Of a stretch of 54,638 nt of DNA, positions 39,793 to 48,593 are shown piece after piece. The notes below the pieces were generated by a model. That model was not told the DNA's origin. It did no database searches and saw only the letters and a program-made list of their open reading frames with translations. The translations under genes and the position numbers were made by a program. The stretch is from Bacteroidia bacterium (GTDB lineage: Bacteria; Bacteroidota; Bacteroidia; NS11-12g; UBA955): NCBI GenBank assembly GCA_965655465.1, contig CBFHGY010000005.1, forward strand, positions 1 to 54,638. Direction: 5' to 3'. Within the stretch, counting starts at the first letter, position 1, and each line of letters starts with the position of its first letter.

Positions 39793-39818
39793 AAAAATCC
39801 CACTCTCGTGGGATTTTT
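39793..39818 (-). terminator. Intrinsic terminator closing the gldL/M-like operon
   Basis: Perfect 11-bp arms AAAAATCCCAC / GTGGGATTTTT. Confidence 0.85.
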
Positions 39819-39835: not shown

Positions 39836-42031
39836 TTATAATTTCTCTTTGAGTGGGATAAAAGTTTTCCCCGTATCATCAGACTTGTTTAGGATGTATG
39901 ATAATCCCATATGCAATTGAAAATACCAATCATTTAAGCCGTTGGTTGATCTTGCGGCCGTGGATGAAATCAAGTCATGCGTCGTTGAACCACCTGATAT
40001 TTTTGATAATTTCGCCGTTTGAAGACCATTATCTGCTCGAATGAATCCATTATCAGGATTTGAGAAATATTCATCCGACATTAATACTTCTAACCATCTA
40101 TCGTAATCACCACCGTACCAAACTCCGGGACCGTAATCATCCAAATAGTCCGTAAAGGTGTATACGGCCTTCATCTCACCTTTAAACGCCCAACGTTTGC
40201 GCAAATACGCCAATTGCCATGATAGCCCAATATTCCCTGAAAACAATCCATAGGGCTTCTTGTTTTCTAAGAAATTCTGTCCTTCCATTCCTAGTTTACG
40301 CAAGGAGGTGCGCTCTTCACTCCATAAACGTGCCTTATAATCTGAGTAAGATTCCTTACTTCCTTGATTTCTGTATGAGATACGATAAGGGGTATAGGTA
40401 AAAACACCCGCGCTAATTCCCATACTGTTGACAAACTTCCACTTTTGACCAGGCTTTAGATTGTATTTGCCAATATGCCATAAGCCCTCAATATCCCAAA
40501 TAACCATAGGTGTTACAAACATCAAAGGCCATGTATTTTTATAAATCTGAATTTTATCATAATTGGCTCCTTCTACAAAAGGAACTTTACCGCCAGAAAG
40601 CAATCCAGTTGCCCATAAATTATGCATGGAAACCGTAGAATGGTACAAATTTGATTTTACAGAAAATCTATTGGTAAAATTATATTGTGCATATCCTCCA
40701 TAACTAATTTCGATGGTACTTGGCATAGGAGCAAATTTGTGGCCGATATCTCCGCCACCGTAAATGGAACCGCCACCCCAAAAACCAAACTCCCAAGTTT
40801 TCAATTTTACGATGTCTTCTTTTTTACCAAACATCGGAACGATTACCATAAATCCGATTTTCGCTTTCAACGTTGTATCTGGCCACTCGGGACTAATTAA
40901 AGTGGTATCTACTTTGCGGTACAATGGAGGAGGTAATTGTGCCGGTGTCAATTTAGGAAGTTTGTACTTAACCCCATTTTGCATAGTAACCTCGGTAGGA
41001 TTACCCTCTAAATACGTAACATTCAACGTATCTGAAGAAAGCTTCTGATTAATATTAACGCTTCTGTTAAATGAATCCCTCACCGCTACTAATTTCACAT
41101 CTCCCACTACGTCTAAAACAATTTTGCCAAACTCATGCGTTGCGCCTAATATGAAAGGTTCGTTCCCTTTTCTCTCCTTCAAAGAACTTACCGCATCTAC
41201 TTTTATTTTAGGCAAACTGTTATCCATACGATTGTCGAATACGACATCGTTAATACTTGCATTTGAATAAATTGCCCCAGCATTGATTTCTAGAGGCAAG
41301 CCTGAACCACCGCTAACAGACAAACCCACATTAAAAAACCCAGAGTAATTATTTACAAAAGTTAAACTACCTAAATCGATATTTTCAGGGTTTGAATTGC
41401 GCGCAATATCCAAGTGCAATATACCCATACTTGAATTTTCACCCTCAATTTCATTATCGTTAAAAGTTAGGTCTTTCAAATGGTATTCGATTCCTTCGCT
41501 ACCCACCTTCTCCAAAATGATATTACTTCTATTGTTGTAAAAACGAGAATTGGAAATACTAAAATTGATAGATTTAGACTCCCTTAAATCTAAGTAGGGA
41601 TTTGATGTATAAAGTATAGGCTCCTTGTAATTAATGCTATGAATCTGAGCATTGCTAATTTCGACATTCTTACGATACCAAAATGGATCAAATCTCAAGA
41701 ACTGAACCAGTTCTTTTACATCTACATTCTTGAACTTTATATTTTGAGTTTCATTAATCCCACCAATAACTATACCTAATCCCGGATTGTTATCATCTTG
41801 AGATTTAATTTGAACCGGATTATCTACTGTACCCGTTACTTCCAAACCTCCATTCACAATAATTCTTGCCCCTGGTTCAAATACCAACGTTTGTCCTGCC
41901 TTTATTCGGAAAGTTTCGCCCGCTTCAATGGTTTTGGTCCCTGAAACCAAAATTTCATCGTTTTGCGCACTTACTACATCGAACATTACCAATGCGATGA
42001 TTATTGAAATGATATGAATTTTCTTTTTCAT
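39836..42031 (-). CDS. Fusion of an N-terminal beta-helix-like domain and a C-terminal DUF6089/PorG-like outer-membrane beta-barrel
   Basis: Signal peptide; TLVFEPGARIIVNGGLEVTGTVDNPVQIKS beta-helix entry motif with N/D-rich rungs; Pro-rich linker; barrel motifs WEFGFWGGGSIYGGGD, LRKLGMEGQ...KPY, YTFTDYLDDY, NDWYFQLHMGLSY. Confidence 0.7.
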   Translation of the reverse strand: MKKKIHIISIIIALVMFDVVSAQNDEILVSGTKTIEAGETFRIKAGQTLVFEPGARIIVNGGLEVTGTVDNPVQIKSQDDNNPGLGIVIGGINETQNIKFKNVDVKELVQFLRFDPFWYRKNVEISNAQIHSINYKEPILYTSNPYLDLRESKSINFSISNSRFYNNRSNIILEKVGSEGIEYHLKDLTFNDNEIEGENSSMGILHLDIARNSNPENIDLGSLTFVNNYSGFFNVGLSVSGGSGLPLEINAGAIYSNASINDVVFDNRMDNSLPKIKVDAVSSLKERKGNEPFILGATHEFGKIVLDVVGDVKLVAVRDSFNRSVNINQKLSSDTLNVTYLEGNPTEVTMQNGVKYKLPKLTPAQLPPPLYRKVDTTLISPEWPDTTLKAKIGFMVIVPMFGKKEDIVKLKTWEFGFWGGGSIYGGGDIGHKFAPMPSTIEISYGGYAQYNFTNRFSVKSNLYHSTVSMHNLWATGLLSGGKVPFVEGANYDKIQIYKNTWPLMFVTPMVIWDIEGLWHIGKYNLKPGQKWKFVNSMGISAGVFTYTPYRISYRNQGSKESYSDYKARLWSEERTSLRKLGMEGQNFLENKKPYGLFSGNIGLSWQLAYLRKRWAFKGEMKAVYTFTDYLDDYGPGVWYGGDYDRWLEVLMSDEYFSNPDNGFIRADNGLQTAKLSKISGGSTTHDLISSTAARSTNGLNDWYFQLHMGLSYILNKSDDTGKTFIPLKEKL

Positions 42032-42037
42032 TTTGAT

Positions 42038-43408
42038 TTACTTCACTTGAATCAATAATGGAGATTCAAACTCCATATTCTTTATTTCATTATTTATATC
42101 TGCGGATTCCACCACTACGTATCTCAGATTTTCTAAACCCTCTTTGGGTAGTTCAATAGTTTCAGTAGCAGAAACCATCAATTCATTAGATATCCCAACT
42201 AAACGATACCTCAAATTAGAGATTTTGTATTTAAAATTCTGCAAATCGGGATGACTTGCATATACACTCAATTTGTTATTTAAACGCAATCTAGTTTTTG
42301 CAATTGACCCTCCACTCACTCCTTTGGCATTTACAAATGGCCTTGGCAAGTTTTGAACATAAACCGAATCACGCAAAAGCAAACCACCCGTCGCATTATT
42401 TATTTGGAATTTACACCAACCAACGCGTTCTGGTGTAAAGATCACTTTGCTCTGTTGCTTATTAATAATTGGGTCTTTATCACAATCGCATGACAAATTT
42501 CCAATATTTAACAGATTTACATATTGCAACTCCGACGTTTTTCCCTCAAAAAAGATATTGTACTTATTCTCTTTTTCTTTTTCGAAATTCTTTGCAACAG
42601 AAGTTACTTTCAAATTCTCTTCTACTCCATTTTTCTTGAAACTCAAGTCATAAACACCCACATATTGAGGAATAAACAGCAATGTATCACCAGCCCATTT
42701 ATTTAGGGGGAAAATCTGATTGTTTTGTTTGGCTTCAACTTTAATTTCTTCGTGGTTGAAAACCACCACTTTTACCGTATCACCCGGACGAACGGCTTCA
42801 ATATTAAACGCCATCAGTATTAAATAATCCCGATTTTGCTCTTCAGTTGTGATGATCCCTCCGTGTAATAACTTCATTTTAAGTTTCAAGTCGGCCATCC
42901 AGGTAACAACTACTCCAATGGGCACATGTTTAAACTTCCACTCTACCCATAGGTTCGCCTTTCCTGCTTCTAATCCATTCATCAAATCGCCAGAAAACAA
43001 CTCTCGAAATTCCTTCTTTTTAGGATTATTATCAGGCAAGCCAAGGTAATAATCTCGGAGAATCACTAATTTATCAAATAACCTGTACCCTTTTTCTAAT
43101 CTTATAAAAAAGTTATCGGTAAGGTTATAGGCATCTATTCCCTTATGTAAGGTTTCTTTATCATCGTATCCTACAAGTTTCCTAAAACCGCTCTCGATTT
43201 CAGTTACATTATCATAAACATCTTTAACCACAGGTTCGTCAAAAACTACTTTTGTGGATCGTTCCATATATTCTGCAAGCGTCACGTTTGTACGTAACCA
43301 TTCGATAGGAATTTGCAACATACTTAATGATATAAAAATCAAGTACATTACACTAATAAGTTTGAAGCGTAAAACTTTAGCCTTTTTAACTCTAACGTAA
43401 TTCCCCAT
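42038..43408 (-). CDS. GldM/PorM-like single-pass inner-membrane protein (paralog A)
   Basis: RFKLISVMYLIFISLSMLQIPIE aligns with the GldM TM motif RQKMINLMYLVF...E; helical domain then Ig-like domains; ends SPLLIQVK. Confidence 0.75.
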   Translation of the reverse strand: MGNYVRVKKAKVLRFKLISVMYLIFISLSMLQIPIEWLRTNVTLAEYMERSTKVVFDEPVVKDVYDNVTEIESGFRKLVGYDDKETLHKGIDAYNLTDNFFIRLEKGYRLFDKLVILRDYYLGLPDNNPKKKEFRELFSGDLMNGLEAGKANLWVEWKFKHVPIGVVVTWMADLKLKMKLLHGGIITTEEQNRDYLILMAFNIEAVRPGDTVKVVVFNHEEIKVEAKQNNQIFPLNKWAGDTLLFIPQYVGVYDLSFKKNGVEENLKVTSVAKNFEKEKENKYNIFFEGKTSELQYVNLLNIGNLSCDCDKDPIINKQQSKVIFTPERVGWCKFQINNATGGLLLRDSVYVQNLPRPFVNAKGVSGGSIAKTRLRLNNKLSVYASHPDLQNFKYKISNLRYRLVGISNELMVSATETIELPKEGLENLRYVVVESADINNEIKNMEFESPLLIQVK

Positions 43409-43409
43409 A

Positions 43410-44822
43410 TTATCCTTTGATTTTTAAAATTGGGCGGCCTTTTGAACTCACACCGCCCTCTTGACCCAACAAACGGATATTATCAAATATCAACACACTC
43501 CCCTTGGGGGCTTTTTCCTCCAATTCCCGCAAATCGTTTCTCAAAAAACGTGTGGTAGAATGTATTTTTTTAAATTTACCATCGGGATATGTAACACTCA
43601 TATCAAAATCAACTACTTGCCAAAATGGATTTACTGATTCCAATTTATTTGCGTTTCCTAATTCGGAAATTTCACCGCTTACACCCATTAAAGCAACCGT
43701 TTCATCCGGCTTTAAAGTAGATACAAATGATGCCTTATCTATAATGTTATTCCCATTTTTCATTACAACATCAAATACTCCTTCTGATTCAGGTACAATT
43801 TGCAAAATCCATCCTTTGCGTGTAATTGAAGCTGCATTCGACTCAAAAGTCACCGCATTACCTCGTGGAACATAACTTGAATCTAGAGTAACGATGATAG
43901 GCTCCCCAACAAAACCAGAAATACTCGTTCCGCTATTGATATATCGAAACATTGGAGGTACCACTTTAAAATTCGTAAAAATGCGCTTTTCATTGGACAT
44001 TATTTCCAAAGAATACGCTCCAATTCGACTAGGTTTGTAAAGCAGATTGTAGGTAGCCACTCCAATAGAATCCAATTTTATAGGCATTCCATTAATTTTA
44101 GCGGATAATACATCACTCGCTGTTTTGGGTCTTAGTTTAATACTGAGGGGTTCTCCAAGAATTAAGTTGCGTTTGAATTTCTGAATAAATTCAGTTTCAT
44201 CTAAAGATACAATTTCAAACTTGGGTAATTCGGATTCTTTATTTTTTAAGGTCAGTATCGTTTCATAAAGCATCACAGTTTTAAAATGCTCTATTATCGA
44301 AGGAACGACTCCATTAGGAGTTCCTTTGAAGAAATAATATACCGCTTCAATATCTTGGCCTTCCGTAGAGGTGTAGGTAACAAACTCCTTTTTTAAGTTT
44401 TTATTACCGATAGGACTATAGGCTTTTAAATATCTTTCAAAAATTCCTCTTAATTCAGGAGCCCATTTGCCATTTCGCACTTGAATTTCAGCAAATTTAT
44501 TTTCTCTTAATCGATCCCCTATTACGCCTGTATTCTTTTTGAAATCATCGTATGCTTTCGCTATTACTTCAAGTTCTTGAATACAAGAAAGGGTCGCCTT
44601 TTTAAGTGCGATTTCTTTTTCTCCCTTGGCTTTAAAAACGTTAAGTTCAGAAATCAAACGTTCGTTCACCATGATTTGAGATCTTGCAACATCTGGATAC
44701 TGCAAAACATACATACCTGGGGAGGTAAAAAAGATTTGTACAATGAAAATCAAATAGAACAAAGACAATCTCATAAATGAGATATTCTTTGACTTTGTGA
44801 CTTTTACGGTGAGATTTCCCAT
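43410..44822 (-). CDS. GldM/PorM-like single-pass inner-membrane protein (paralog B, divergent TM)
   Basis: Shares the MGN start and YLIFI TM motif with paralog A; C-terminal WQVVDFDMSV...KGSVLIFDNIR resembles the GldM C-terminal domain. Confidence 0.68.
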   Translation of the reverse strand: MGNLTVKVTKSKNISFMRLSLFYLIFIVQIFFTSPGMYVLQYPDVARSQIMVNERLISELNVFKAKGEKEIALKKATLSCIQELEVIAKAYDDFKKNTGVIGDRLRENKFAEIQVRNGKWAPELRGIFERYLKAYSPIGNKNLKKEFVTYTSTEGQDIEAVYYFFKGTPNGVVPSIIEHFKTVMLYETILTLKNKESELPKFEIVSLDETEFIQKFKRNLILGEPLSIKLRPKTASDVLSAKINGMPIKLDSIGVATYNLLYKPSRIGAYSLEIMSNEKRIFTNFKVVPPMFRYINSGTSISGFVGEPIIVTLDSSYVPRGNAVTFESNAASITRKGWILQIVPESEGVFDVVMKNGNNIIDKASFVSTLKPDETVALMGVSGEISELGNANKLESVNPFWQVVDFDMSVTYPDGKFKKIHSTTRFLRNDLRELEEKAPKGSVLIFDNIRLLGQEGGVSSKGRPILKIKG

Positions 44823-44831
44823 TGTAGAAGA

Positions 44832-45335
44832 TTACTTCTTCAGAATATCGTTATACTGTTCGTTGATTTTTTTCAAATTTTCGTTGTAACCGGTCATTAA
44901 GTTATTGAACTCTGTAACTGATTGCTTCATGTTATTTGATTGTTCAACGTTAGACCGCATTTCCGTTTTAATTTCATTAACCGCCTTGGTCATTTCCATC
45001 AAACCGTTGTTCAACTCCTTTAAAGTTTCACTAAACTGCTGCATAGCAGACTGGTATCCATTGGTTTGAACTTCAACGCCACGCTCATCCACGTTATCCA
45101 ATTGTGGAAATACCTGCTCCCATTGATATTCTTTCTCGGTTACTTTTCTTTCAAAAGCTGAAATCAAGAACACGATTGCTTCAACCGTAAGACCCACGAT
45201 GAACATTTCGTTGGCATAGTTCCAACCTAAAAATTTGAACATCGCACCGACCAATACGATTGCAGCACCAACTCCATAGATAAAGGTAACGGTATCTAAT
45301 TTACCTTTTTGTTCTTTTTGATTCATATTACTCAT
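44832..45335 (-). CDS. GldL/PorL-like two-TM motor subunit (short)
   Basis: FIYGVGAAIVLVGAMFK...GLTVEAIVFLISAFE...YQWEQVFPQL followed by a coiled-coil tail. Confidence 0.88.
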   Translation of the reverse strand: MSNMNQKEQKGKLDTVTFIYGVGAAIVLVGAMFKFLGWNYANEMFIVGLTVEAIVFLISAFERKVTEKEYQWEQVFPQLDNVDERGVEVQTNGYQSAMQQFSETLKELNNGLMEMTKAVNEIKTEMRSNVEQSNNMKQSVTEFNNLMTGYNENLKKINEQYNDILKK

Positions 45336-45364: not shown

Positions 45365-45877
45365 TTACTTTTTAAGAATGTGTTCCTGAAATGAATTCCA
45401 ATTGGCAACATTTTGCTTCAAGGCTCTTTTAGTAGCTGCCTTGTTTAATATTACAAAGGCAACTAGCAATACGAATAAGGCACTTACCGAAACTACTAAT
45501 TGGTCTGCAAACTTCTTAGCCATCTCTTCCTTAACGCCATCAACTAATTTATTCTGTTGTTCGAATTTTTCCGCAAATTGATCCAACGCAATATTCATAG
45601 CGCGCTCATTCTGTGCTTGAAGTTCTAAACTTTTTTTCATCTCAGATTGAACCGCTTCTTTATTGGTCTGCAATTCAGTTTTCATTAAAAACAATGCACT
45701 TTCTAATTCGGTGATTCGTTGTGCATATTGCAAGTTTTGTTTTTGCAATCGTTCCAATTTTTGATCTAATTCGTTCGTTTTAATTGCATTATCTGTTTGA
45801 GCATAACTCAAAGAGCTTGAAATAAAAGCAATAACTAAGAGTATTAGTTTATACATTGTGATAGAGGGTTTATTCAT
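45365..45877 (-). CDS. Hypothetical coiled-coil protein with a signal peptide and a C-terminal TM anchor
   Basis: Start is ATG 45877 or 45856 (MYKLILLVIAFISSSLSYAQ); long heptad-rich region; hydrophobic VVSVSALFVLLVAFVIL near the C-terminus. Confidence 0.7.
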   Translation of the reverse strand: MNKPSITMYKLILLVIAFISSSLSYAQTDNAIKTNELDQKLERLQKQNLQYAQRITELESALFLMKTELQTNKEAVQSEMKKSLELQAQNERAMNIALDQFAEKFEQQNKLVDGVKEEMAKKFADQLVVSVSALFVLLVAFVILNKAATKRALKQNVANWNSFQEHILKK

Positions 45878-46070
45878 ACAAAAATCGCTGCGAAGATATG
45901 ACATATTTTGAAATTCAATGATGTTTTATATATTACGTTTATAACAATTGATTTTTTTTATTTATTAAAAACCTCGTTTACAATAAGCAGATTGCAAAAA
46001 TCAGACCAAACCCTATATCCCCAAATACCAATAATCCGTTACTTAAATTTATTCTTTAGTTTTGCATGTC

Positions 46071-48593
46071 ATGCGCACACATTTAACCACTTTTATAACG
46101 GCTTGTTTGCTGCTTATAGGCTCTTCGGGAATTGCGCAACCCGCTCAATACCTAACGATTGTTGTCACTGAAAAGTCTTCCGGTGACCCCATCCCCTTTG
46201 CCTCAATTTCTTTAAAGTCAAAATCGTTGCAAGTGGAAACTGACTTCAACGGGAAGGTTCGAATTGCTTTGCCTCAGACGGATTCGGACACCCTTGTTTG
46301 CTTTTTTACTGGTTATACAACGCTTAGTAAACCATTAGATTCCGTTCGAAAATCAACCTTTCTGAAATTAGAAATGGAACGCGAAATTGTTCGTAGTCAA
46401 TCCGTTTCTATTTCCTTAGGAATCAACCCTGCACACAGATGGATCCGATTAGCTCAACAAAATCGCAATCTACATAACCCCCTTAATTTTCCGGGCCATT
46501 CTACATTGCTGAGAACACAAAATACGATTGCCCTAAATAATATCTCTTCAAACTTCTTCCATAAAAAATTGGGCAGTTCTCTTCACGAACTTTCCGATAC
46601 GCTTAGTTATGTGAGTGGCGATTCTGCCCAACGTGTATTGCCCGTTTTCCATTCTGAAACGATCAGTAGAATTTTTCAACAATCGAACCCTTATAAACAA
46701 CAAGAGTTTATTCTAGGTAGCCGGGTTCACGGCGTTGGCGTCGATCAGGGCGAATTTATTTCGCAATTAACCGGTTCTGCACTCCTTACCTATAATATAT
46801 ATAAGCCTATCCTCACTTTTTTGGAAAAAGGAATTCCTTCTCCTATTTCCGATGCTGCCTTCAATGCATATAATTATGAACTTATTGGTGTCGATAAATC
46901 CAAAAAACTTCGTGAATTTTTAGTGCGTATTACCCCACAAAATGAACAAGATGTGGCTTTCAGTGGAATTATTTGGATACAAGAAGTTTCAGGTGCGATT
47001 ACCCGATTTGTACTCGAATTACAAGGTACTTCTAATTTGAATTACATCGATCGCATCAAAATTTCACAAGAACACGTTATCGATACAAACTTCCAGAATA
47101 GATGGGTCCTTAAACACGGAAGGATCTCCTTCGACCTAGAAGACTTGAATAAAAAGGCGGCAAGTATCATCGCGCTAAATGAAATTTCCGTAATTTCATA
47201 CCGATTAGAACCCTTTGTTGCCGATAGTATAGGAACTCAACGCATTGTTAAAGATGATGACGCCCATAATCGCGATACCAGTTTTTGGGCTAATTTTAAT
47301 TTTTTGAATCCCAATGAAGCCTACAAACGTATACACGAACAAATTGATTCCGTAAAAGCAATCCCAATTGTAGCCAAAGGGGTGAGCTTAGTTAATGTCA
47401 TGGTCGACGGATACTATGGACCCGGACTGCCCATTGAATTCGGGCCTTATTTCCTTATCGCCGGATACAATCCGTTAGAAGGCATTAGAACTCGATTGGG
47501 CTTCCGGACTTCCTACCGGCTGTCTGAAAAATGGCAGTGGGAAAGCTTTATTGGATATGGATTTAGAGATAAAGAAATCAAATACGGTGCTAAGTTCAGT
47601 TGGCATCCCAATCCTAAAAACGGCACTTATTTTAAACTTTCCCATGCACAAGATGTAGAACTTATTGGATTTTCCGATAACGATGCGGTTTCTAGTGGAG
47701 ATGCTTTAGTAACGGCCTTGAATATGTTCTCTAACACTTCGGTTACCTATTGCGAATCAGAAAAATTGGAGATAGGCACCGATATCGCAAGGGGATTAAC
47801 GCTTTCCAGTGTTTTGTCACATAGACGATATTCACTTCCCAGCAATCAACGCGTTCAACTTGCTTGGTACGATTCCTTACCCAGTCAACGCATTGGTTTT
47901 AACCTTAACAATGCTACTGCCACCTTAAAAATTCGCTACGAACCCAAAGTTTTTTACTTGATTCGCCGTGGTCGCCGCAAAAAAATAAGTCCTTCCGGAC
48001 CCATTTATACCCTTTCCTACATGCAAGGTATCAAAGGTTTCTTGGGAAGCCGATTTGATTATTTTCGGATAGCAACACAGGCCGACCACCAGAAAGTCTG
48101 GGGTCGATTTGGTCGCACCTTAACCCGTATTCAAGCCTCTAAAGTTTTTGGCGCCATTCCTTTCCCACTTTTAGATATCCCTTTGGGAAATCAATCCTTG
48201 GTACTCAATAACCGTTCATTTAATCAAATGCAGTTGTTTGAATTCGTTGCAGATCAAACCATTCAATGGCAAATTTCCCATCAATTTAACGGCTACTTTT
48301 TCAATCAAATCCCCCGACTTTCGAAGTTAAAATGGCGCGAAGTGATCCATACAAAAGGCATTTGGGGTAGTTTAAGTGCTGAAAACGCGGCATTTATCCC
48401 TCAGGAAATTCCAGGAGACCAACCCATTATTCCCATTCATGGATTCGGTGGGAAACCTTACCTAGAAGCGGGAGTAGGCATTGAAAATATGTTCCGATAT
48501 TTCAGAATTGATGCGATTTGGAGACTCACCCATAGAGACGCATTTCCCGATAGAAATTTTGGAGTGAAACTCTCGGCATTTGTAAAATTCTAA
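46071..48593 (+). CDS. DUF5686-family outer-membrane protein with an N-terminal CarboxypepD_reg-like domain
   Basis: GDPIPFASI...TDFNG...FTGY N-domain; SPISD, YNPLEGIR, PYLEAGVGIENMFRYFRIDAIWRLT, terminal Phe; TAGTTTTG -7 element at 46057-46064. Confidence 0.82.
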   Translation: MRTHLTTFITACLLLIGSSGIAQPAQYLTIVVTEKSSGDPIPFASISLKSKSLQVETDFNGKVRIALPQTDSDTLVCFFTGYTTLSKPLDSVRKSTFLKLEMEREIVRSQSVSISLGINPAHRWIRLAQQNRNLHNPLNFPGHSTLLRTQNTIALNNISSNFFHKKLGSSLHELSDTLSYVSGDSAQRVLPVFHSETISRIFQQSNPYKQQEFILGSRVHGVGVDQGEFISQLTGSALLTYNIYKPILTFLEKGIPSPISDAAFNAYNYELIGVDKSKKLREFLVRITPQNEQDVAFSGIIWIQEVSGAITRFVLELQGTSNLNYIDRIKISQEHVIDTNFQNRWVLKHGRISFDLEDLNKKAASIIALNEISVISYRLEPFVADSIGTQRIVKDDDAHNRDTSFWANFNFLNPNEAYKRIHEQIDSVKAIPIVAKGVSLVNVMVDGYYGPGLPIEFGPYFLIAGYNPLEGIRTRLGFRTSYRLSEKWQWESFIGYGFRDKEIKYGAKFSWHPNPKNGTYFKLSHAQDVELIGFSDNDAVSSGDALVTALNMFSNTSVTYCESEKLEIGTDIARGLTLSSVLSHRRYSLPSNQRVQLAWYDSLPSQRIGFNLNNATATLKIRYEPKVFYLIRRGRRKKISPSGPIYTLSYMQGIKGFLGSRFDYFRIATQADHQKVWGRFGRTLTRIQASKVFGAIPFPLLDIPLGNQSLVLNNRSFNQMQLFEFVADQTIQWQISHQFNGYFFNQIPRLSKLKWREVIHTKGIWGSLSAENAAFIPQEIPGDQPIIPIHGFGGKPYLEAGVGIENMFRYFRIDAIWRLTHRDAFPDRNFGVKLSAFVKF

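Follow-up and report, generated by a model that had tools for sequence, protein, structure and literature searches.

A beta-helix and PorG-like barrel fusion protein as a candidate outer-membrane acceptor of a second GldLM-type motor in a Bacteroidia bacterium

The 54,638-nucleotide (nt) stretch analysed here (the window; contig CBFHGY010000005.1 of assembly GCA_965655465.1, Bacteroidia bacterium) carries on its minus strand a tight operon of five genes in the order p179, GldL-like (GldL'), GldM-like 1 (GldM1'), GldM-like 2 (GldM2') and p731, the last of which encodes a fusion of a beta-helix with a PorG-like barrel. The reading favoured here, with a probability of about 60%, is that p731 is the outer-membrane acceptor of a second GldLM-type motor. 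The parts of this cassette are homologues of GldL, GldM and PorG. Hitherto undescribed are the fusion, the lack of gldK and gldN in the cassette and its encoding as a separate operon; the literature search returned no paper on GldL-like, GldM-like, PorM-like or PorL-like proteins, and none mentioning DUF6089.

Architecture and PorG relationship of p731

The open reading frame (ORF) of p731 (also P0001) occupies 39836..42031 on the minus strand, starts with ATG and encodes 731 amino acids (aa), none of which is cysteine (Cys). An AlphaFold2 model obtained with 36 homologues as input (mean predicted local distance difference test score, pLDDT, of 81.9; predicted template-modelling score, pTM, of 0.50) gave a layout of signal peptide, right-handed beta-helix, immunoglobulin (Ig)-like sandwich, disordered Pro-rich linker and 8-stranded OmpA/PorG-type barrel. 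The first-pass annotation, made without database searches, had proposed a Cys-free protein with a signal peptide, a beta-helix, a Pro-rich linker and a C-terminal half folding into a beta-barrel, and this description was borne out by the ORF, the model and the Foldseek comparisons, with eight strands counted in the barrel.

The signal peptide (aa 1-22; 41966..42031, minus strand, as are all features of p731) is modelled as a helix at aa 2-20. Its probable cleavage between A22 and Q23 fits the Gln at position +1 that is a pattern of Bacteroidota signal-peptidase-I substrates, and this Gln, Q23, is shared by at least 90% of the 36 homologues. The beta-helix (aa ~23-262; 41246..41965) is predicted as short strands in a confident rung pattern from aa 26 to ~260 (pLDDT mostly >88), as in right-handed parallel, pectin-lyase-like beta-helices, and contains the motif RFDPFWYR (aa 113-120), which is invariant in the homologue alignment. 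In Foldseek the N-terminal half weakly resembled PL6 alginate lyases, phage tailspikes and a polygalacturonase, and the profile of the beta-helix also picks up rungs in proteins bearing the Pfam domain Beta_helix.

On these matches p731 could be read as an outer-membrane-anchored periplasmic enzyme or glycan-binding protein, with a beta-helix like those of lyases, epimerases or hydrolases of the AlgG/NosD/PL6 type; the motor would then do no more than position or regulate this protein, or else the genes would stand in one operon because they serve a common envelope-polysaccharide pathway. Consistent with such a function, PL6 alginate lyases, polygalacturonase and phage depolymerase tailspikes rank first among the fold matches to the N-terminal half, rungs of a related kind are present in proteins that match Beta_helix and NosD in Pfam, and a set of polar residues is invariant (E39, Q110, R113, R120, E137, D148, N166, N167, E174, D266 and H299). 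The fold matches are weak, however (E at least 1.5e-3; template-modelling score, TM, 0.13-0.16), the Pfam scan of p731 gave no match to lyase or hydrolase families or to any other, a catalytic motif was not recognised, and the invariant Asn and Gly may be structural ladder residues. An enzyme or lectin would also leave the strict coupling to the motor genes unexplained, and we consider this explanation unlikely.

Behind the beta-helix, the Ig-like beta-sandwich (aa ~263-360; 40952..41245) is modelled with strands at 275-357 (pLDDT ~87-91), and the Pro-rich flexible linker (aa ~361-408; 40808..40951) has pLDDT <50 at aa 369-397. The Pro-rich string KLPKLTPAQLPPPLY comprises aa 357-371, and the linker includes D375-T376, invariant in the family alignment within the motif YRKVDTTLIS. 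The predicted PorG/DUF6089-like outer-membrane barrel (aa 409-714; 39890..40807) is indicated by the model strands (409-426, 439-453, 456-469, 505-519, 531-546, 597-611, 614-625 and 702-714), by matches to the T9SS_PorG and DUF6089 profiles and by Foldseek against the PDB, in which the best match of the C-terminal half was OmpA (9fzc_A; E 8.8e-5, TM-target 0.70), with further matches to the 8-stranded barrels of the OprF N-domain, Ail, OmpW, NspA and OmpX. A poorly conserved tail of 17 aa without Cys (aa 715-731 plus the stop codon; 39836..39889) ends the protein. Searching PDB sequences with a profile of the p731 family gave no matches.

The translocator barrels of type V autotransporters are 12- to 16-stranded, and the linker of the passenger runs through them; with its 8-stranded barrel, and OmpA, OmpX and OmpW as best folds, p731 was ruled out as a protein of that kind.

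The NCBIfam model T9SS_PorG (NF052316, an equivalog with a curated cut-off of 130 bits) matched p731 with 32.4 bits over aa 412-469 only (profile positions 3-57), and in a six-frame search of the genome p731 scored 20 bits against 144 and 136 bits for two true porG genes. The same model was matched by 29 of the 36 members of the p731 family (best E 2e-17), none of them near the cut-off. DUF6089 (Pfam PF19573) was matched by only five members (best E 3.7e-8), p731 itself staying below the gathering score, while fusions of a sister class pass DUF6089 with 42-68 bits; by these profile scores, the p731 barrel is best placed as a diverged relative of the DUF6089 domain. A pairwise alignment of aa 544-711 with the genome's own PorG gave 24% identity and covers the TFTDYLDD motif and the DWY of the last strand. 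The DUF6089/PorG-type barrel of the first-pass annotation stands as homology, given the 29 T9SS_PorG matches and the shared motifs; the resemblance is real but weak, with scores below the cut-offs.

In PorG, whose active role was recognised only in 2025 (PMC12365241), the termini face the periplasm, as do two short loops and one of 11 aa, and the chain is extended at its C-terminus, where Cys232 is disulfide-bonded to PorK; the conserved Cys is essential in Porphyromonas gingivalis (PMC12365241). The P. gingivalis protein (PG0189) is an outer-membrane barrel of eight strands with its termini in the periplasm; of its periplasmic turns, two are very short and one measures ~11 aa. In common with it, p731 has eight strands with turns of 2, 11 and 2 aa (the side of its termini taken from topology) and matching folds, the TFTDYLDD and (N)DWY motifs and a genetic tie to a GldL/GldM-type motor. 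Unlike PorG, it carries a fused N-terminal, probably periplasmic module of ~385 aa, has no C-terminal Cys for linkage to PorK, and has neither gldK nor gldN adjacent to its gene. The identification of p731 as a true PorG was rejected: the score is far under the cut-off, the protein is a 731-aa fusion and not stand-alone, and the C-terminal Cys is absent.

The lack of Cys had been taken to fit the absence of a disulfide-linked GldK partner. Across the 36 homologues no Cys is conserved in the mature chain; in most of them Cys occurs only inside the signal peptide, and the mature chains of a few contain scattered Cys at unconserved positions. That a protein is without Cys is in general weak evidence, as 88 of the 1381 long ORFs in the genome are free of it, and the telling feature is instead the specific loss of the C-terminal Cys of PorG.

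The N-terminal module of p731 is probably periplasmic, as the first-pass annotation had allowed for the fused domain; four independent arguments, from topology and from homology to PorG, support this placement. In other proteins TSP3 repeats come after a DUF6089-like barrel, joined in one protein of this genome by OmpA_C, a domain that is periplasmic and binds peptidoglycan, which argues for the same side in p731. The even number of strands places both termini on one side, and so does the existence of variants of ~1005 aa that append a tandem barrel. The turns on the side of the termini measure 2, 11 and 2 aa against 12, 35, 50 and 76 aa for the loops on the opposite side, an asymmetry that mirrors the description of PorG, whose C-terminal extension bonds the periplasmic PorK (PMC12365241).

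The same topology bears on the proposal, also raised by the first-pass annotation, that the beta-helix is a surface-exposed passenger or adhesin carried or moved by the motor. Beta-helices are indeed typical of autotransporter and adhesin passengers, giant repeat proteins of 2000-7700 aa also match the first-rung profile, and the barrel has long external loops that are conserved in part. A barrel of 8 strands, and not 12-16, offers no pore through which a passenger could pass, however, and the beta-helix would precede a barrel that in PorG has its termini in the periplasm; the tandem-barrel variants, too, fit a periplasmic N-terminus. Neither a T9SS (type IX secretion system) C-terminal sorting domain (Por_Secre_tail or type B CTD in Pfam and NCBIfam) nor, in the family alignment, a lipobox was found in p731, which ends in a barrel strand and the 17-aa tail. 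A surface passenger is therefore very improbable.

In OmpA-family proteins of Bacteroidota with a DUF6089-like barrel, an 8-stranded barrel likewise anchors periplasmic domains; their peptidoglycan-binding TSP3/OmpA_C parts come after the barrel, whereas the beta-helix module of p731 comes before it. One such protein, of 580 aa, is encoded in this genome (C7:28829-30568, minus) and consists of an N-terminal PorG/DUF6089-related barrel (55 bits), TSP3-like Asp-rich repeats and an OmpA_C-like end, indicating that PorG-type barrels are general outer-membrane anchors in this organism.

The motor operon, its canonical counterpart and its relatives

The intergenic gaps within the operon are 29, 9, 1 and 6 nt in gene order, and 140 nt separate p731 from sucB. 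A terminator-like hairpin (39793..39818, minus), with an 11-pair stem followed by a T-run, lies 18 nt past the stop codon of p731 and likely marks the end of the operon. The short GldL-like subunit (167 aa; 44832..45335, minus) matched Pfam GldL_N with E 2e-25 and TIGR03513 with 92 bits, and its Glu52, in the second transmembrane helix, is invariant and aligns with the Glu of the canonical GldL of the genome.

GldM2' (456 aa; 42038..43408, minus) is modelled with a transmembrane helix, a helical D1 domain and three beta domains (pLDDT 80.5), and its best Foldseek matches were GldM (6ey4; E 2.7e-12) and PorM (7cmg; E 1e-11); Pfam GldM_1st was matched by 13 of 21 members of its family. GldM1' (470 aa; 43410..44822, minus) is its paralogue: the two families aligned in hhalign with a probability of 99.1% (E 1.2e-18, 360 columns), and within the GldM1' family GldM_4th was matched by 4 and Filamin by 10 of 19 members. 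Searched against PDB sequences, the GldM1' and GldM2' profiles gave only filamin matches or marginal GldM matches (E 0.4-0.7), and fold comparison was used instead. GldM2' has an invariant Arg14 eight residues before the conserved transmembrane Tyr22, which we take to be the same spacing as that of R9 and Y17 in GldM. GldM1' has Ser15 at the corresponding position, eight residues before its transmembrane Tyr, together with an invariant Lys12, and this difference suggests an asymmetric, heterodimeric GldM' shaft with a single proton-coupling Arg.

The first gene, p179 (45365..45904, minus), encodes a protein with a signal peptide, a coiled coil, a C-terminal transmembrane helix and a short tail with an invariant WNxFQ. 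According to the alignment the signal peptide ends in AQ, the periplasmic coiled coil contains the conserved QELQAQNERAMNLALD, and the WNxFQ tail is cytoplasmic. The annotated ATG is probably too far upstream and the real start M17 (nt 45856), since the homologues begin at that position. The gene was found in the five-gene class only, namely in 27 of the 28 loci whose upstream flank reaches 3.9 kb or more and also in the distant loci L063 and L064; the three-gene cassettes of the sister class are without it.

The first-pass annotation had placed p731 in the position of gldN and suggested that its fused domain may replace a missing K/N ring. The position holds as gene order, p731 following the GldM-like genes; in Pfam, p731 showed no homology to GldN (PF19841) or to GldK of the FGE-sulfatase type. 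The ring is not missing from the genome. Contig C16 carries porP/sprF, gldK (FGE-sulfatase type), gldL, a four-domain gldM and, beside gldM, gldN, the sole GldN match of the genome, and on contig C13 (18226-19891) two bona fide porG genes stand in tandem (144 and 136 bits), each with a Cys a few residues from the C-terminus (...TTCFQF and ...PLICR). With porP-gldKLMN and two porG genes on other contigs, the cassette in the window is an additional motor, and not a T9SS that lost its K and N components.

The presence of a complete canonical set also permits the explanation that p731 is a PorG paralogue with an accessory domain that serves the canonical GldK/GldN ring, GldL' and GldM' being spare stator units. 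The barrel of p731 is homologous to that of PorG, and canonical gldL lies beside gldN in both genomes that could be checked (the present one, G000, and G347). Yet the C-terminal Cys that links PorG to PorK is absent and no mature-chain Cys is conserved in the family, the genome already has two full-score porG genes with that Cys, GldM1' and GldM2' are so diverged that Pfam misses most of their domains, and the module moves as a unit through changing genomic contexts. We regard a role at the canonical ring as improbable.

In total, 68 clusters homologous to p731 were obtained at 37% identity or more, all of them unannotated, and an exhaustive profile search of 1.84 billion representatives gave ~30 full-length p731 representatives together with a sister class of fusions. 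A scan of species-representative genomes gave 43 loci, all in metagenome-assembled genomes (MAGs) of Bacteroidota, most of them labelled Bacteroidia, Flavobacteriales, Cryomorphaceae or Croceimicrobium. Some cassette-bearing MAGs are titled 'uncultured Rhizobium sp.', 'Bifidobacterium sp.' or 'Chitinophaga pinensis'; their gene content is that of Bacteroidia/Flavobacteriales, and these labels look wrong.

Loci were counted as informative with at least 1.45 kb of upstream flank for GldM2' (n = 32) and at least 3.9 kb for all four upstream genes (n = 28); the contexts of P0102 and P0145, at contig starts, were left out as uninformative. A GldM2'-like gene lay directly upstream of the p731 homologue in 30 of the 32 loci, and all four upstream genes were present in 27 of the 28. 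No gldK or gldN was found inside the cassette in any locus examined. The module persists under different flanks in L040-L043, L046, L047 and L052 (31-34% identity) and in the distant L063 and L064. Of the two exceptions, L051 is an assembly with frameshifts that retains fragments of the module.

The only real exception is L045 (4964-9785), where the locus has neither gldL' nor gldM' and a 633-aa homologue follows a BNR/sortilin-like protein that bears a T9SS C-terminal domain. This homologue has the sandwich and the linker deleted, and its genome (G401, a 1.7-Mb MAG) gave only a sub-threshold GldL_N match.

In the sister class (690-1090 aa) the N-terminal beta-helix and the DUF6089 barrel are both homologous to those of p731. 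All five of its readable contexts (L062, the P0143 contig, G347/L073, L079 and L080) have the order gldL', a single gldM' and then the fusion, with unrelated flanks; on the P0143 contig gldM' is upstream of the fusion and the gene upstream of gldM' is truncated. The association of the fusion with gldL- and gldM-like genes expected by the first-pass annotation was hence recovered in 30 of 32 loci and 5 of 5 sister-class contexts. The idea that it always accompanies a duplicated gldM failed, since the sister class follows a single gldM': the fusion is tied to gldL/gldM-like genes generally, and not to the duplication. The system is rare, as an even sample of 400 genomes of the phylum contained a relative only in G347.

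Proposed mechanism and comparison with known motors

In the mechanism proposed here, p731 would be anchored in the outer membrane by its PorG/DUF6089-type barrel, with ~385 residues hanging into the periplasm. This part would comprise the right-handed beta-helix, the Ig-like sandwich and a flexible Pro-rich tether, a linker of ~45 residues with D375-T376 that would hold the beta-helix/Ig module to the PorG-like anchor. Like the GldL5:GldM2 motor, the second motor, independent of the T9SS locus, would consist of a ring around a shaft, here of GldL' around GldM1'/GldM2', and p179, as an inner-membrane coiled-coil protein, could be an accessory of it. Proton flow through GldL' would turn or flex the shaft, whose distal Ig-like domains may extend as far as the outer membrane and make contact there with the periplasmic module of p731; it is reasonable to suppose that the GldM' tips dock on the beta-helix. 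Force or torque would then pass straight to the outer-membrane-anchored p731 without a GldK/GldN ring. The output of the motor is hypothetical only, and might be movement of p731 or of its surface loops, outer-membrane remodelling or glycan handling.

Several points weigh against the assignment of p731 as acceptor. Physical contact between GldM' and p731 is only a hypothesis, and the sidedness of p731 is deduced from topology rules for outer-membrane proteins and from homology. With a pTM of only 0.50, the relative placement of the domains in the model is unreliable. Many of the loci share flanking synteny (sucB, CDF transporter) and are thus not independent; most of the five-gene loci come from one lineage with conserved flanks, and the locus count is inflated. 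In L045, a p731 homologue exists without adjacent motor genes, though it has also lost the sandwich and the linker.

The cassette shares with the GldLM/PorLM-GldKN/PorKN chain a GldL-type subunit with a transmembrane Glu, a periplasm-spanning shaft of the GldM fold and an outer-membrane acceptor encoded right after gldM. It differs from the chain of type IX secretion and gliding in that the shaft is encoded by two diverged paralogues (by a single gene in the sister class), a beta-helix-barrel fusion stands as acceptor in place of a lipoprotein/GldN ring, and p179 is added. The Ton (ExbBD-TonB) and Tol-Pal systems follow the same logic, in which an ion-driven 5:2 motor of the inner membrane acts through a periplasm-spanning protein on a specific outer-membrane protein, and p731 resembles the Ton case in its flexible Pro-rich segment and the short invariant DT motif near the barrel. 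Unlike those systems, the cassette has no homology to ExbB/D, TonB, TolA or the 22-stranded receptors.

More tentatively, the cassette may represent a class of GldLM-type proton motors in Bacteroidota that work without the T9SS, in which the shaft engages one outer-membrane protein and the DT motif acts like a TonB box; this extension is doubtful, and the analogy of the DT motif with the TonB box is speculation. If it were true, the cassette would offer a minimal and tractable model for the coupling of a 5:2 motor to the outer membrane, and it might show the role of PorG before the K/N ring existed. How GldLM/PorLM hands energy over to the outer membrane is still an open question for type IX secretion and gliding, and a cassette of three to five genes, with a GldM-fold shaft, one PorG-related protein and no K/N ring, would allow this hand-over to be studied in a far simpler setting. 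It would also show that motors of the GldLM class, as is the case for ExbBD and TolQR, have been put to several uses in the envelope. In current annotations all of these proteins are 'hypothetical', and the gldL' and gldM' copies could pass for T9SS genes.

Neighbouring gene, tandem barrels and repeat proteins

The operon is adjoined by a divergent gene on the plus strand (window 46062-48593), which encodes an 843-aa outer-membrane protein with CarboxypepD_reg and DUF5686. This neighbour is kept in the nearer relatives L011, L013-L015, L021, L026, L030 and L045, and not in the distant ones. The public sequencing runs found, with all kinds of run considered, were DNA only and derived from marine plankton metagenome.

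The p731 variants of ~1005 aa (P0045, P0035, P0038 and P0027; loci L008 and L031) carry a second PorG-like barrel in tandem, with 33-36% identity to the first; two tandem 8-stranded barrels within one polypeptide are unusual. A set of giant proteins of 2000-7700 aa (P0095, P0105-P0114 and others) contains 5-17 copies of a unit that matches positions ~20-100 of the p731 profile, corresponding to the first rungs of the beta-helix, with the consensus ISGT..V..GETFTI.AG..L.FE.GA.L.V.G.

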